Shown one piece after another: positions 1 through 32,403 of a DNA stretch of 64,000 nucleotides (the first letter of the stretch is position 1; each line of letters begins with the position of its first letter). The stretch covers positions 1,735,319 through 1,799,318 of the forward strand of contig JADKFU010000005.1 in assembly GCA_016717285.1 (NCBI GenBank), written 5' to 3'. Source of the stretch: Chitinophagaceae bacterium (GTDB lineage: Bacteria > Bacteroidota > Bacteroidia > Chitinophagales > UBA10324). Under the pieces are notes generated by a model, which saw nothing but the letters and a program-made list of their open reading frames with translations, had not been told where the DNA came from and did not search any database. The position numbers and the translations under genes are program-made.

Positions 1-2621
1 TTGGTTGGAATGACTGCGCTTACTGTTCCTGAATTGGCATTGCTGCTGAGCGAACCAATATTTACCGGTGCGTCGAAAGAACCTGTTTTATCTGAAAGCT
101 GTGCGGTATAAATATTTGCGCCGCTAAAAGTGCCGGTGGAAGAAAATGAAACATTCACTGCTGTTCCCGGACAGAAAGGTGAACCGCTTATTGGATTTGT
201 AATTATAGTATTTGCTTCTCCGAGTGTAAAAGGAGAGAAGGAACTGACGGTTGCTGATGTGATAGTGCCGGAAGTATTTGTTCCTGTTGTAGCTGTAACA
301 CCTGCATCTGTCCATTGTGCTCCATCCCAACGTGCAACGGTTAATCCATTCAAATCTGCAAGTGCTTCTGTCGTATTCCATTGCAGTTTCACATTTGCAT
401 TGGCACTGCCATTCCGGTCAAGTGTCCAGTAGGAGAAAGTATTTACGGAAGTAATGGGTGCAAGTACGCTTGTGGTATTGCTGTAGGAAGAAGAAAAATA
501 TTCAGCGGTCCATGTTGTAGAAGAAGTTGATCCAGGCGTCACGCTCAACGGTCTGTAGTTTAATCCTTTGCCGAGTTGAAATAAAAATTCTGCAGTTGAT
601 GTTGTGGTTTTTGAAACGGGTCCATAAACACAACTGAAAGCATTTCCACCAAGGAAGCCACCGGTTGCACCAAATATCAGTTTTGCGCCGGAGGACGTGG
701 TGAGAATCCCGCTCATCAATGTGAAGATGCCGGTTGTATTTACGGGTGAATTACAGGTTGCTCCGGCAGCATTGTTCAATTGAAGATTTCCCCATTCACT
801 GCCGGTTCCGCTTAACGATTGATTGGTAGTTCCACCCAAAATAATTTTTCCGTTTCCTGAATGCATTCCATCGTTTATCACAGTCCCTTTTGTTGTTGCA
901 TCAAATCCGCCATCGGCCAATGTTGTGCCTGCGCCAATTTTTAAAGTGCTGTTTGAAGTGATTGCATTGTTCATTGTTTTAACTCCGCTATTGCTCGTAC
1001 TTAACTGATTGTATGTCCTGTCCGTTATAGACTGTACACCAGCGGCTGAATAGTCAACTGTTCCTGCGCTACTGATTCCATTCAGATTCCAATCGATGTC
1101 AGCGGTTCTGTTTTTGAAAGCAACGGCGGCGGCAGCTTCGGACAACAATCCTTTTCCAAGCCCACCCGAATTTTCAACATACAAAACACCATTTCCACCC
1201 ATAGAAATTGTCGGACCATTGGTTGGCACATAACCGATGTCTTCTGTTTCCGTTTCTGATCCTGCAACTTCGCCACCGTTTTCAATCCGAAGTGTTCCAT
1301 TAACAGTAAGTGTGTTATCGGAATGCATTGCAAGACTTGATCCGTTGGTAATTTTCCAGTTGCCGTTCACCGTCCAGTTGGCCATTGATTCAGAGATCTG
1401 CGCAAGTGTAAGCGAACCAAGCGGACTGGAAGATTGCACATCAGCATCAAATACTTTGAATGCAACACTCAAAGTATTAGGTGTGCCAACAGATCCTCCG
1501 TTCAGATTCATTTGTGGAAAAGCTCCCTGTGAATCAAATAAGCCAAAAAAACAAGTCCTTACCAGGAAATCTTCAGAAGTAAAAGGAATATCAATCGTGT
1601 GTGTTTCGCTGCTGGCCCAGGTCATATTACCTGAAACATTTATCACAGGATTGTTAGGTTCTGTGCCACCGAAGACTTTTGTATTTCCTACGAAAACAAA
1701 AATATCTGTCATATTCCAATCACCGCTGATGGTCAAATCTGTTGCGTTGCCTGCTCCGCCAAAACAATTCGGCCCTAATACACCAAATGCAGTAGCAGCA
1801 TTAGCTTGCGTCATAGAAGGAGAAATGAAGGAGCCATTCACCGACATGGTTACATTGGAGTTGGAGGCATCATTCAAAATCATCGCAGCGTTTACAGTAA
1901 GTGTTGTAACGGAAGTAAAAACATTGACACTCGAAGTAATTTTGGCGGTGCCACTTCCTAATTTGAAATTGGCAAAGCTGTGCGTGATGGTTGCATTGTT
2001 GGTAGCACAACCAATCAGTAAACCTTGCTTGATTACCATAGTGTCTGCAGTAGTAACACTTACATTCAGTTTGGTGGGAGCAGTTTCAGAAGGTGTAAAT
2101 GAACCCGCGCCATAATCAATCACAAATTTTCCTCCTGTATTATTGAGTGTAAGTTTATTCAGGTTGAGTGTATGACTACCGCCAATGGTTTGAGTAACCG
2201 AGTTTCCAATCACCATGTTGCATTTGTTGGAACTGTTCACAAGATTCATAATGCCGTTGTTGGTGAAAGCAATACCATTGTAATTAAAAGTATGAACAGT
2301 CGCTGTTCCAGGCGATGCACAAATAAAAGAACCTGTTCCATTGATTACAAAGTTTCCGGATACGGTCCAGGTGCGCGCTGCTCCGGTCGCATCCCATTGC
2401 AATGTTCCATTTACAGTTACATTGATAATATTATTTGGATTGATATTAATGGTAACAATATGGCCGGTGCTGATCACCACATCGTCGTTGGCAACAGGCA
2501 CTGTACCACCCCATATGCTGGGATTATTCCAGTCACCTGAAGTAGTAGTAGTGCGCACTGTTGCAAATGAAGTAACAGAAAGAAGAATGCTTGCCAGAAG
2601 CAGAAGGGTAATTTTTTTCAT
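1..2621 (-). CDS. Large secreted cell-surface repeat/adhesin-like protein; N-terminus complete, C-terminus cut by the window edge
   Basis: Hand translation of the minus strand from ATG at 2621-2619 gives MKKITLLLLASILLSVTSFATVRTTTTSGDWNNPSIWGG... (signal peptide). The frame stays open for ~873 codons to position 1. It is absent from the ORF track because no stop lies in the window. The + strand ORFs listed here (1237..2115, 2172..2540 etc.) are antisense shadows. The last ~65 aa (NPISGSPFCPGTAVNVSFSSTGTFSGANIYTAQLSDKTGSFDAPVNIGS) are homologous to the N-terminal module of CDS 44941..46113. Confidence 0.75.
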   Translation of the reverse strand, partial: MKKITLLLLASILLSVTSFATVRTTTTSGDWNNPSIWGGTVPVANDDVVISTGHIVTININPNNIINVTVNGTLQWDATGAARTWTVSGNFVINGTGSFICASPGTATVHTFNYNGIAFTNNGIMNLVNSSNKCNMVIGNSVTQTIGGSHTLNLNKLTLNNTGGKFVIDYGAGSFTPSETAPTKLNVSVTTADTMVIKQGLLIGCATNNATITHSFANFKLGSGTAKITSSVNVFTSVTTLTVNAAMILNDASNSNVTMSVNGSFISPSMTQANAATAFGVLGPNCFGGAGNATDLTISGDWNMTDIFVFVGNTKVFGGTEPNNPVINVSGNMTWASSETHTIDIPFTSEDFLVRTCFFGLFDSQGAFPQMNLNGGSVGTPNTLSVAFKVFDADVQSSSPLGSLTLAQISESMANWTVNGNWKITNGSSLAMHSDNTLTVNGTLRIENGGEVAGSETETEDIGYVPTNGPTISMGGNGVLYVENSGGLGKGLLSEAAAAVAFKNRTADIDWNLNGISSAGTVDYSAAGVQSITDRTYNQLSTSNSGVKTMNNAITSNSTLKIGAGTTLADGGFDATTKGTVINDGMHSGNGKIILGGTTNQSLSGTGSEWGNLQLNNAAGATCNSPVNTTGIFTLMSGILTTSSGAKLIFGATGGFLGGNAFSCVYGPVSKTTTSTAEFLFQLGKGLNYRPLSVTPGSTSSTTWTAEYFSSSYSNTTSVLAPITSVNTFSYWTLDRNGSANANVKLQWNTTEALADLNGLTVARWDGAQWTDAGVTATTGTNTSGTITSATVSSFSPFTLGEANTIITNPISGSPFCPGTAVNVSFSSTGTFSGANIYTAQLSDKTGSFDAPVNIGSLSSNANSGTVSAVIPT

Positions 2622-2781
2622 GCGGGATGGATTTTTGGGATTGAATGAGTAAATGTATATTTTTATTTTTAGGATGAAAATGGGGAGTTGTTTATTTTAA
2701 TCGTTGCCGTCTGACTAAATTTTGGGACATTATCGTCATCCCAAACTTGTTTCAGGATATCATCATCGATTGAGGGATGCC

Positions 2782-2932
2782 GAAATAAATTCGGCATGAC
2801 GGTAGTTTAACTGTGTCCCAAATTACCGTCATCCCGAACTTGTTTCAGGATCTCATCATCGATTGACTGATCCCGAAACAAGTTCAGGATCTCCATATTC
2901 GAACGGATGCCGAAATAAATTCGGCATGACGG
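2782..2932 (+). repeat. 151-nt higher-order repeat unit, copy 1 (3 mismatches to copies 2 and 3)
   Basis: Base-by-base comparison with 3230..3380. The only differences are in ACTGTGTCCC vs ACTCTGTCTC and CATCCCGAAC vs CATCCTGAAC. Confidence 0.85.
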
Positions 2933-3229
2933 TTTTGGCTACGGTTTGACGATCGGTTCAGCGTCTACCATACACACGTCGTCCCAAATTACCGTCATCC
3001 TGAACTTGTTTCAGGATCTCGAACTCTGTCCCAATTAGGTGGTCCGGGGCAATGTCCAATTGAGCAGATGCCAAAGGGGGGCCGCTTCCCGCGTTTCGGT
3101 CCCATATTCGAACGGATGCCGAAATAAATTCGGCATGACGGTAGTTTAACTCTGTCCCAAATTACGGTCATCCCGAACTAGTTTTCCGAAGGATCCTGGG
3201 GGCAGGATGTCCATATTCGAGCAGATGCC

Positions 3230-3380
3230 GAAATAAATTCGGCATGACGGTAGTTTAACTCTGTCTCAAATTACCGTCATCCTGAACTTGTTTCAGGATC
3301 TCATCATCGATTGACTGATCCCGAAACAAGTTCAGGATCTCCATATTCGAACGGATGCCGAAATAAATTCGGCATGACGG
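3230..3380 (+). repeat. 151-nt higher-order repeat unit, copy 2 (identical to copy 3)
   Basis: GAAATAAATTCGGCATGACGGTAGTTTAACTCTGTCTCAAATTACCGTCATCCTGAACTTGTTTCAGGATCTCATCATCGATTGACTGATCCCGAAACAAGTTCAGGATCTCCATATTCGAACGGATGCCGAAATAAATTCGGCATGACGG, compared by eye with 4023..4173: identical. Confidence 0.9.
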
Positions 3381-3587
3381 TTTTGGCTACGGTATGACGA
3401 TCGGTTCCGCGTCTTCCATACACACGTCGTCACAAATTACCGTCATCCCGAACTTGTTTTCCGAAGGATCCTGCGGGCAGGATCTCCACATTCGAACGGA
3501 TGCCGAAATAAATTCGGCATGACGGTTTTGGGTACTATATGACGATCGGTTCACCGTCTCCCAAACAAACGCAGTCCCAAATTACCG

Positions 3588-3959
3588 TCATCCCGAACTA
3601 GTTTCGGGATCTCTCCGGCGGAGTTCATACTCTTTTCGCATATCCTCCCTAAAGGTTTTTATTTCATCAGGAGTAAACCAATCATGAGCCAGGTCCAATA
3701 AAGATTTGTTAAAGGATTTTGCCTGATTCCATTTCCACTTGCTGTGCCAGTTCTTTAATTGTTTTTCTCTTTCAATCGCAGCGATCATGGAAGGATGTTT
3801 TTCATAATAGATAAGATCAACAAGATTATATTTTGCTGCGAATGATGACCCGATTCCTGCTTTGTGCTCAAGCATCCTTTTTTCAAGATCACTTGTAACG
3901 CCGATGTAAATGGTTGTTCGGTTTTTATTGGAAATAAAATAAACTGCGGGATGTTTCAT
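3588..3959 (-). CDS. GIY-YIG nuclease superfamily protein (small UPF0213/YhbQ-like type)
   Basis: ATG at 3959 gives MKHPAVYFISNKNRTTIYIGVTSDLEKRMLEHKAG...YYE...IAAIEREKQLKNW, the GIY..YIG N-terminal motif followed by conserved R/E/N positions. The longer track ORF (to 3989) begins inside a repeat unit. The last residues RRDPETSSG and the TGA stop are encoded by repeat motif M1. Confidence 0.85.
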   Translation of the reverse strand: MKHPAVYFISNKNRTTIYIGVTSDLEKRMLEHKAGIGSSFAAKYNLVDLIYYEKHPSMIAAIEREKQLKNWHSKWKWNQAKSFNKSLLDLAHDWFTPDEIKTFREDMRKEYELRRRDPETSSG

Positions 3960-4022
3960 GAATACTAATATACACGTCATCCCGAACATGTTTCTGGACT
4001 TTTCTATTGATTGAGGGATGCT

Positions 4023-4173
4023 GAAATAAATTCGGCATGACGGTAGTTTAACTCTGTCTCAAATTACCGTCATCCTGAACTTGTTTCAGGATCTCATCAT
4101 CGATTGACTGATCCCGAAACAAGTTCAGGATCTCCATATTCGAACGGATGCCGAAATAAATTCGGCATGACGG
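4023..4173 (+). repeat. 151-nt higher-order repeat unit, copy 3 (identical to copy 2), on the other side of the GIY-YIG gene
   Basis: Perfect direct repeat of 3230..3380. Confidence 0.9.
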
Positions 4174-4429
4174 TAGTTTAACTCTGTCCCAAATTACGGT
4201 CATCCCGAACTAGTTTCAGGATCTCATCATCGATTGATTGATCCCGAACTTGTTTAGTGATCTCCCAATTCGAGCAGATGCCGAAATAAATTCGGCATGA
4301 CGGTTTTGGGTACGGTATGACGATTGGAAAATTCTACCCGCGTAATATCAGTAGAAATTCACAATGCATTCTTCGGTATTGAAATCCTTTTCACAAGAAG
4401 CAGTATGTTAGCAGTTGAAAAGAACACTT

Positions 4430-5188
4430 ATGAAACAAAAACTTTTATCCTTCATGATGCTTATGGGAGCGCTCGCATTCTTCACCCATCATCTTGCCGC
4501 TCAATGCATTCCCAACAATGATACAGTGGTAGGAATAGAACCGGATACTTTATCGGTGGCTTACGTGGGAGTTCCATATGAACAAATTATTTATTTCAAA
4601 ATACCACTCGATACCAGTATTCAATTTGGCCCATATACGGTGCCAATAGTGGTTGACTCCTTAGTGATAACAAGTTATTCAGGATTGCCACCATCGTTTT
4701 CATTGTCTTGTAATACGGCATCATGCACCTTGCTTGGCGGACAAAACGGATGTGCTTCCATCAGCGGAACAGCTACAGAATCAGAACTGGGATATCATCC
4801 TTTGAAGGTGTATGTAACAACCTACGTATCTGATACTTTGGGTACAACTATAGGTGGATTTCCGGACTCCATCGACTTTTATTTTTTGGATATTCAACTG
4901 CCTGCAGGAATTGCTAATACGTCATCAGGAAATTGGGAGATGGGATATCTGTATCCCAATCCGTCCAACCAAAAAATTTTGATTTCGGTTACGGCTCCCA
5001 TCAATACAATTGCAGAATTATCAGTGAAAGATATTTCAGGTAGGGAAATAAAACGGGAACAAGTGGAATTGAAAAAAGGGAGCCACGCGAATTGGATTGA
5101 TATTTCTTCACTGCCGGATGGTTGCTATTTTATTCAGTTGAATGCAAAGGGATATCATGCAAATGCAAAATTCCAGGTGATGCATTAA
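4430..5188 (+). CDS. Secreted hypothetical protein with T9SS (Por) C-terminal sorting domain
   Basis: ATG at 4430 gives MKQKLLSFMMLMGALAFFTHHLAAQ (signal peptide). The C-terminal ~80 aa, LYPNPSNQKILISV...GCYFIQLNAKGYHANAKFQVMH, fit the T9SS type A CTD pattern. Confidence 0.7.
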   Translation: MKQKLLSFMMLMGALAFFTHHLAAQCIPNNDTVVGIEPDTLSVAYVGVPYEQIIYFKIPLDTSIQFGPYTVPIVVDSLVITSYSGLPPSFSLSCNTASCTLLGGQNGCASISGTATESELGYHPLKVYVTTYVSDTLGTTIGGFPDSIDFYFLDIQLPAGIANTSSGNWEMGYLYPNPSNQKILISVTAPINTIAELSVKDISGREIKREQVELKKGSHANWIDISSLPDGCYFIQLNAKGYHANAKFQVMH

Positions 5189-32192: not shown

Positions 32193-32280
32193 CCTTCATG
32201 CCGAATTTATTTTCCGGAAGATGCTGCGGACGGCATCTCTGCCAAATCGGGAGATTCCGAAATAAATTCGGAATGACAGC
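32193..32280 (+). repeat. Solitary degenerate copy of the M1-hairpin-M2 repeat family
   Basis: CCTTCATGCCGAATTTATTTTCCGGAAGATGCTGCGGACGGCATCTCTGCCAAATCGGGAGATTCCGAAATAAATTCGGAATGACAGC aligns along its length with the unit at about 3440..3527. It retains the perfect hairpin ATTCCGAA-ATAAA-TTCGGAAT (32254..32274). Confidence 0.65.
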
Positions 32281-32403
32281 TATGACTTTACTTTTTTCCA
32301 ACCATCAACGCGACAATTTGTTATGCAACCCTGTCGAACAAGCGAATGGTAATTTAGTGTGATTTTAATATCTTTACCGCTTATTACCCCAACAAAAACT
32401 TCC

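Follow-up and report, generated by a model that had tools for sequence, protein, structure and literature searches.

The window analysed here is a 64-kb stretch of a 2.38-Mb contig from a metagenome-assembled genome (MAG) of a Chitinophagaceae bacterium, and the census of repeats reported below covers that window. Between positions 2734 and 4303 it holds a 1.6-kb mosaic array built from two kinds of hairpin repeat, M1 and M2. The sole credible gene within the array is an open reading frame for a 123-residue GIY-YIG nuclease, as an earlier sequence-only reading of this DNA had noticed. Very probably the gene and the repeats together constitute an Ssn–SRM locus: the protein would be a member of the Ssn family of site-specific nucleases for single-stranded DNA (ssDNA), and M1 and M2 its cognate oriented hairpins, of the kind called NTS or SRM in the work on that family and CGTC-tagged repetitive extragenic palindromes (REPs) by Di Nocera et al. 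The array parses into nine doublet units of the form CGTCAT...ATGACGG, with tags outward, which are given here in array order, followed by the linkers, the long repeat and the gene.

2734..4303: whole array, nine doublet units with two linker types between them
2734..2802: U1, short doublet, 69 nt, with M1 at 2734 and M2 at 2776
2827..2932: U2, doublet, 106 nt, made of M1, a tagless inverted M1 and M2
2993..3141: U3, doublet, 149 nt, with a GC-rich internal insert
3166..3250: U4, doublet, 85 nt, tag GGTC, with a mini-hairpin insert TCCGAAGGATCCTGGGGG within M1
3275..3380: U5, doublet, 106 nt, identical to U8
3441..3525: U6, doublet, 85 nt, of the U4 type
3586..4043: U7, gene-bearing unit, 458 nt, made of M1 (3586), the ssn gene and a short M1–M2 doublet (3975–4043)
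4068..4173: U8, doublet, 106 nt
4198..4303: U9, doublet, 106 nt, tag GGTC, inner arm diverged
2803–2826, 3142–3165, 3251–3274, 4044–4067 and 4174–4197: short linker TAGTTTAACTCTGTCCCAAATTAC, 24 nt, five copies
2933–2992, 3381–3440 and 3526–3585: long linker, 60 nt, three copies
4304–4327: truncated long linker, the right edge of the array
3230..3381: perfect 152-nt repeat, copy 1
4023..4174: perfect 152-nt repeat, copy 2, on the opposite side of the ssn gene
3588..3959, minus strand: ssn homologue, single-domain GIY-YIG nuclease of 123 aa (Pfam PF01541, E=6.4e-18)

M1 (CGTCATCCYGAACWWGTTT) is matched ten times at no more than two mismatches, always on the plus strand, from 2734 to 4216, against a chance expectation of 0.01. 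M2 (the 27-mer GATGCCGAAATAAATTCGGCATGACGG) is matched nine times at no more than three mismatches, from 2776 to 4303, against an expectation of 0; eight of the nine copies are exact, and the one at 4017 carries a single mismatch. Both are hairpins with an 8-bp stem, a 5-nt loop and a CGTCAT tag on one side. These matches agree with the copy numbers and geometry of the sequence-only reading, whose two linker types are also recovered. Its proposal that M2 is a diverged, inverted M1 is borne out by arms such as AAATTACCGTCAT.../...ATGACGGTAGTTT, which are 79–82% complementary. As ssDNA, a whole 119-nt unit folds at −33.4 kcal/mol (z −8.65); M1 and M2 alone fold at −6.1 and −9.8 kcal/mol, respectively, with z about −4. 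The stem is CCYGAA/GCCGAA, and the 3-nt tail that follows the hairpins is CTC or CCG. The tag trinucleotide GTC abuts the palindrome in all 19 array hairpins, and a C stands directly 3′ of it in 16 of the 19 (7/10 M1, 9/9 M2). The outer arms of the gene-bearing unit U7 (3579–3615 and 4013–4049) are 78% complementary.

A perfect repeat, reported earlier as 151 nt at 3230..3380 and 4023..4173, is real and extends to 152 nt on both sides of the ssn gene; a third copy at 2782–2932 has three differences. Multi-unit blocks of the array are 97–100% identical, the linkers are themselves repeated, and the start and end of the array share the linker sequence TTTTGGG(T)AC. Because of these three features, it is most likely that the mosaic grew by tandem or segmental duplication of modules composed of a unit and a linker, and not by many independent insertions. 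The 152-nt perfect repeats and the metagenome-assembled source might instead be taken to mean that the assembler expanded a single unit. A look-up of the exact window protein in the contig index found nothing, and so no second independent assembly of the locus. Such an artefact is nevertheless highly improbable: the array contains at least five unit types with unit-specific substitutions and inserts, unlike a collapsed or expanded repeat, and the same design recurs in smaller arrays beside homologues of the gene, both in isolate genomes and in assemblies made independently.

Two of the inserts deserve comment. That of U3 (3019–3114, GGTGGTCCGGGGCAATGTCC...GGGGGGCCGCTTCCCGCG) is GC-rich and contrasts with the AT-rich remainder of the array. 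The M1 variant with a mini-hairpin TCCGAAGGATCCTGCGGG in its 3′ arm (3166–3250, 3441–3525) also occurs in the unrelated metagenome contigs L089 and L130, which suggests a conserved sub-type and no local accident.

The Ssn family was described by Chenal et al. 2025 (Nat Commun 16:2388; PMC11893778) as single-domain GIY-YIG nucleases that are site-specific for ssDNA and are associated with oriented hairpins (NTS/SRM). In N. meningitidis the enzyme is SsnA (cd10448), which has 94 residues and a single GIY-YIG domain. It binds the NTS repeat CGTCATTCCCGCGMAVGCGGGAATCYRG solely as ssDNA and in a single orientation, and its cut lies a few nucleotides upstream; cleavage needs Y6, Y17 and E64 (PMC11893778). 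For cleavage, the three nucleotides 5′ of the palindrome carry the most weight in the NTS, and for binding the C directly 3′ of it; these are the positions counted above in M1 and M2. At least one degenerate SRM lies near 71% of Ssn homologues and SRMs lie on both sides of 42%; of the genomes with over 200 SRMs, 81% encode a homologue (PMC11893778). In Neisseria, SsnA reduces transformation by NTS-bearing DNA (PMC11893778).

The window protein is 43% identical over 91 residues (E=7e-27) to the gonococcal 94-aa SsnA orthologue (L071, 9998–10282), a reference that carries the published catalytic Y6/Y17/E64; the Ssn authors used a homology cut-off of E<1e-10. The counterparts of the three catalytic residues in the window protein, Y7, Y18 and E65, are invariant in 27 homologues. 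An AlphaFold model of the protein (pLDDT 93.6) displays a GIY-YIG core and an additional long C-terminal helix, residues 97–116, that is not found in the 94-aa enzymes; its best fold matches in the PDB are the GIY-YIG domains of UPF0213, Slx1 and UvrC. PF01541 is the only Pfam domain above cut-off, and there is no separate DNA-binding domain, so that the difference between 123 and 94 residues is one of size, with no added domain. By sequence, the PDB yields only UPF0213 EF2693 (E=0.002), and neither the sequence nor the fold searches found a solved Ssn structure among the generic GIY-YIG domains that they returned. No NCBIfam model lies above cut-off for the protein. PADLOC gives weak matches to the GIY motif only and PHROGs none; these searches support neither a phage origin nor assignment to a known defence system, and both readings were rejected.

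Gene and repeat overlap at the locus. The M1 hairpin at 3586 encodes the last seven codons of the ssn homologue (DPETSSG) and its stop codon, a TGA that is the complement of the TCA in the CGTCAT tag. Viewed on the strand of the gene, a CGTC-hairpin stands upstream of ssn (the reverse complement of 4017–4043) and a hairpin-GACG overlaps the stop codon (3586–3612). The gene is thus flanked both 5′ and 3′ by oriented hairpins, as in the Ssn family, and closer homologues display the same geometry, with the stop codon within the hairpin tag. In homologues with 48–68% identity from unrelated metagenome contigs, the protein often ends in DPETSSG, DSETSSE, DAETSSA or MLKQVQHD, and some begin with HPELVSGS or MLNLFQH. 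These termini are one hairpin translated in different frames. About 25 of 120 homologues (P0003, P0006, P0031, P0045 and others) carry such hairpin-encoded C-terminal tails or N-terminal extensions, and annotated protein lengths are therefore inflated.

Several observations weigh against assignment of the locus to the Ssn–SRM system. The published SRM search string, HGTCWYN(0-2)YYVSBRHN(0-5)WNVSBRGN(0-2)RNCYNB, has no match in the window or in L002, L004 and L035, loci with CCTGAA/GCTGAA stems, though it does match Neisseria, Rhizobium and gammaproteobacterial loci. Membership of the hairpins thus rests on shared architecture and not on the operational definition of the Ssn authors. The ssDNA-nuclease activity of the window protein is predicted by analogy, like that of the other Bacteroidota members, and a protein of 123 residues with an extra helix could differ from the 94-aa SsnA in how it handles its substrate. 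Finally, the repeat counts cover only 64 kb of the contig.

The association of the gene with the repeats in other genomes was examined at 80 genomic loci encoding relatives of the protein (L001–L080), which were searched for tagged hairpins. They span Bacteroidota, Alpha-, Beta- and Gammaproteobacteria, lineages labelled delta proteobacteria, Neisseria gonorrhoeae, Treponema, Cyanobacteria, Acidobacteria and candidate phyla. Within 300 bp of the homologous genes, the density of CGTC-tagged hairpins is 1.74/kb; in the remaining flanks it is 0.128/kb, a difference of about 14-fold. The association of the repeats with GIY-YIG genes, for which the sequence-only reading had suggested a statistical test, is therefore systematic and no local accident. 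When all 256 tetranucleotides are ranked as tags, CGTC (118 near-gene matches) and its shifted form GTCA (123) stand at the top, with a median of 3. The forward CGTC-hairpin usually lies 36–56 bp upstream of the start codon, with a peak at 0–100 bp; the reverse hairpin-GACG usually lies 24–62 bp past the stop codon or overlaps it, with a peak at 0–250 bp downstream. A strict detector applied to 83 genes finds the upstream hairpin at 30, the downstream hairpin at 30 and the two together at 16. In other assemblies, 3–6 hairpins surround the gene at homologous loci, so the 19 in the window represent a large case of a common design.

Stable hairpins in extragenic DNA could also be REP-like elements with a common regulatory function, for example in termination or in stabilising mRNA, and with no relation to the nuclease. 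This account is very unlikely, since it leaves the strong, oriented association with ssn genes unexplained, and the searches made of the array lend it no support. A terminator scan of 2500–4500 found none where chance alone would give 1.9, and the stems are not followed by T-runs; an Rfam scan of 2300–4700, with E up to 1, returned only sub-threshold look-alikes of microRNA precursors, as generic long hairpins do. A promoter scan of the array region found nothing.

Clades differ in stem sequence. Bacteroidota, Sphingomonadales and some others have CCTGAA/GCTGAA, Beta- and Gammaproteobacteria have TCCCGCG, and Rhizobia have CCTCGGGC. The nearest neighbour by protein shares the hairpin class for 39 of the 45 genes whose hairpins were classified, against a permutation mean of 16 and a maximum of 29. 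The match sometimes extends across phyla, alphaproteobacterial genes with CCTGAA hairpins being nearest to proteins of Bacteroidota or Calditrichia, which may point to enzyme and repeat having been transferred horizontally together. The SRM string misses the CCTGAA/GCTGAA class, whose hairpins surround ssn genes in the same arrangement, and censuses that rely on it therefore probably undercount the Ssn system in Bacteroidota and Sphingomonadales.

A search that begins with the hairpin gives a complementary view. An exact M2-type 25-mer is present in at least 120 metagenome stretches, and in 80 of 125 M2-type copies the hairpin is paired with a forward M1-type hairpin in a doublet of 53–129 nt in total. 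Conservation of the doublets ends exactly at YGTCA...TGACR. Only 12% of the M2-type copies lie within long open frames, though such frames cover 86% of the bases. An ssn homologue is found in 3 of 120 hairpin-bearing stretches, in each case 25–166 bp from the hairpin. The repeat is thus a REPIN-like heterodimer scattered through extragenic DNA, and a nuclease gene typically resides inside or beside such a doublet.

The small number of hairpin-bearing stretches that encode the nuclease would also fit a different relationship, in which ssn is a free-standing selfish gene akin to those of homing endonucleases and the hairpins are pre-existing host REPs that serve as safe insertion sites, being neither partners nor products of the enzyme. 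Many insertion sequence (IS) elements insert into REPs, which counts in favor of this relationship, as do weak similarities to homing endonucleases (TIGR01453, 20.5 bits; PADLOC HEase, E=0.0014). Both matches fall well short of threshold (cut-off 56 bits), involving the GIY motif only, and the window protein lacks a DNA-binding domain. Moreover, the hairpin geometry is fixed across phyla, forward upstream and reverse overlapping the stop codon; direct and specific binding of the hairpin by SsnA has been reported (PMC11893778); and the tracking of hairpin classes by protein clades fits cognate pairs, not opportunistic targeting. A selfish gene of this sort is therefore unlikely.

The dispersed doublets also bring into consideration a mobile system like that of REPINs and RAYTs (REP-associated tyrosine transposases), in which Ssn would excise and spread the doublets, U7 being autonomous and the gene-less doublets non-autonomous. 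This proposal overlaps the assignment to the Ssn–SRM system and adds a function to it; it is possible, but on balance doubtful. The ssn gene lies inside an outward-tagged doublet both in the window and in Rhizobium bangladeshense (L049), where two tandem SRM-ssn-SRM cassettes, 90% identical, occupy 2159–3352 and are followed at 3546–3670 by a gene-less doublet that shares their extended flanks (CCAACCCCACACTC|CGTCAT ... ATGACG|GAGGAGAGGTGGTGCC). The number of metagenome stretches with an M2-type hairpin, the prevalence of doublets with sharp ends and their extragenic dispersal point in the same direction, as does a decayed solitary doublet 28 kb from the array in the window itself. Chenal et al. 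raised the analogy as well, likening NTS-ssnA-NTS to an insertion sequence and to the pairing of RAYTs with REPs and bacterial interspersed mosaic elements (BIMEs) (PMC11893778).

On the other hand, the chemistry of GIY-YIG enzymes is hydrolytic, and neither strand transfer nor a covalent intermediate is known for them; in Neisseria, the cut falls a few nucleotides beyond the conserved unit and not at its boundary. The 80 dispersed doublets show no target-site duplication and no target consensus beyond the Y/R beside the tags. The presence/absence polymorphism for which the sequence-only reading suggested looking did not appear: samples with the same homologous locus (L201 vs L202, L203 vs L206) are identical in sequence. 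The window array, too, resembles tandem duplication rather than insertion. Mobilization driven by the GIY-YIG enzyme, as the sequence-only reading would have it, is hypothetical both here and in the work of Chenal et al. (PMC11893778).

Under the assignment to the Ssn–SRM system, homology to Neisseria SsnA permits a sketch of how the locus may operate. When either strand becomes single-stranded, a hairpin of the form 5′-(C)GTC-AT-stem-loop-stem-AT-C-3′ would form, with M1 read on the plus strand and M2 on the minus strand. The nuclease would be expected to bind this hairpin in one orientation only and to nick a few nucleotides 5′ of the tag, inside the AAATTAC or AAACTAC that precedes CGTC. 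The units are REPIN-like heterodimers, each of two different inverted hairpins with their tags outward, and one of them contains the gene. As for a cellular role, by analogy with Neisseria the enzyme may trim ssDNA at repeat clusters and so modulate recombination.

The sequence-only reading had regarded the locus as a candidate for an undescribed system. The Ssn family and its flanking oriented hairpins are already published (PMC11893778); the system was described in 2025 and is no new kind of system, and the present results leave the picture of its kind unchanged. What is modestly new is the Chitinophagaceae MAG as host, the CCYGAA-stem hairpin class outside the SRM string, the C-terminal helix and the size of the array. 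The main text of Chenal et al. makes no mention of Bacteroidota, nor does it cite the paper on CGTC-tagged REPs (PMC11893778). A literature search for GIY-YIG together with REP, REPIN, RAYT or MITE (miniature inverted-repeat transposable element) found nothing; the Ssn paper surfaced via dRS3. The present results join two literatures: the repeats known as NTS/SRM are those that the older work called “CGTC REPs”, which in 2013 had no known dedicated enzyme. Ssn is the only known class of site-specific endonucleases that act solely on ssDNA, and each pair of enzyme and hairpin is a potential new specificity for an ssDNA tool; the locus offers a clean pair from Bacteroidota, with one enzyme and two related hairpins, M1 and M2.

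A broader proposal, speculative and rather improbable at present, is that Ssn nucleases are the long-missing mobilizing enzymes of the whole superfamily of CGTC-tagged REPs, comprising the Bacteroidota doublets, Neisseria dRS3 and neisserial intergenic mosaic elements (NIMEs), the Rickettsia palindromic element (RPE) and the alphaproteobacterial REPs. If this were true, the window would capture a “REPtron” state, in which an autonomous gene-in-doublet unit stands beside non-autonomous REPIN-like copies, and an ssDNA nick by a GIY-YIG enzyme, combined with host repair or replication, would constitute a route of transposition apart from those of the HUH, DDE and serine/tyrosine enzymes.

The surroundings of the array add three further features, as follows.

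3–2621, minus strand: large gene for a G8-domain protein, left neighbour of the array
4430–5188, plus strand: gene for a protein with a type IX secretion system (T9SS) sorting domain, right neighbour of the array
32197..32279: solitary decayed doublet of the U4/U6 type, tags CTTC/GACA, with a diverged M2 at 32253

The array had been placed between two secreted-protein genes; its position between two genes stands, and their description is corrected to a G8-domain gene and a T9SS sorting-domain gene that are divergently transcribed. The array sits in the 1.8-kb gap between them, which recalls the NTS clusters beside surface-protein genes of Neisseria. The decayed doublet lies just upstream of an open reading frame that starts at 32359, and a relaxed hairpin search of the other 62 kb of the window yielded no further copy beyond it.

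Comparison with known systems places the locus more precisely. The I-TevI type of GIY-YIG homing endonuclease was set aside: the TIGR01453 match (20.5 bits, cut-off 56.05) covers residues 5–34 only, there is no PHROG match and the protein has no extra domain. The REP/BIME-like layout seen in the sequence-only reading is confirmed, as is its remark that a GIY-YIG nuclease is found here in place of a Y1/RAYT transposase. The locus shares with REP/BIME–RAYT systems and REPINs a mosaic of palindromes in alternating orientation, a small vocabulary of linkers, inverted doublets, an enzyme gene with its own repeats on either side and, as a prediction for the window, recognition of hairpins on ssDNA. 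Its enzyme, in contrast, is a GIY-YIG hydrolase rather than an HUH/Y1 protein (IS200/IS605-like), its tag is CGTC rather than GTAG, and mobilization by Ssn is only hypothetical. Membership in that group was rejected on the grounds of enzyme and tag, the mosaic layout alone being held in common. The dRS3-based NIMEs of Neisseria, in which about half of the dRS3 copies are NTS, likewise consist of 50–150-bp blocks between inverted 20–30-bp hairpin repeats beside genes for surface or secreted proteins; they differ from the window in hairpin sequence and host, and in that the window array has a nuclease gene inside it.

CGTC-tagged REPs are closer still. Di Nocera et al. 2013 (BMC Genomics 14:522; PMC3733652) defined them by a CGTC tag, an 8–9-bp stem starting with AT and a 4–5-nt loop, found mostly as dimers, and reported them from Alphaproteobacteria, Neisseria (dRS3), Rickettsia (RPE), Bacteroidetes, Chlorobi, Spirochaetes and Thermotogae; they “apparently lack a dedicated transposase” (PMC3733652). 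M1 and M2 fall within this definition in tag, stem, loop, dimeric arrangement and extragenic position, with an 8-bp stem starting AT, a 5-nt loop, dimers of two different hairpins and a host among the Bacteroidetes. They depart from it in the 3′ tail, CTC/CCG where CCA is usual, and the 2013 paper reported no associated enzyme and only rare large clusters (PMC3733652). The NTS is a CGTC-1 REP, which makes Ssn a candidate for the missing dedicated enzyme of the CGTC REPs.

The closest counterpart is the Ssn/NTS–SRM system itself. The window protein is 29 residues longer than SsnA and has both an additional C-terminal helix and a tail encoded by the hairpin, and the locus differs from those published in its Bacteroidota MAG host, its CCYGAA/GCCGAA stem with a 5-nt loop, its 19 hairpins and an activity that is predicted. 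In common with that system, it has a small single-domain GIY-YIG protein with the same catalytic Tyr/Tyr/Glu, a gene flanked on both sides by hairpins with a 5′ CGTCAT tag and a 3′ C, their tags outward, and repeats that occur both in mosaic clusters and dispersed.

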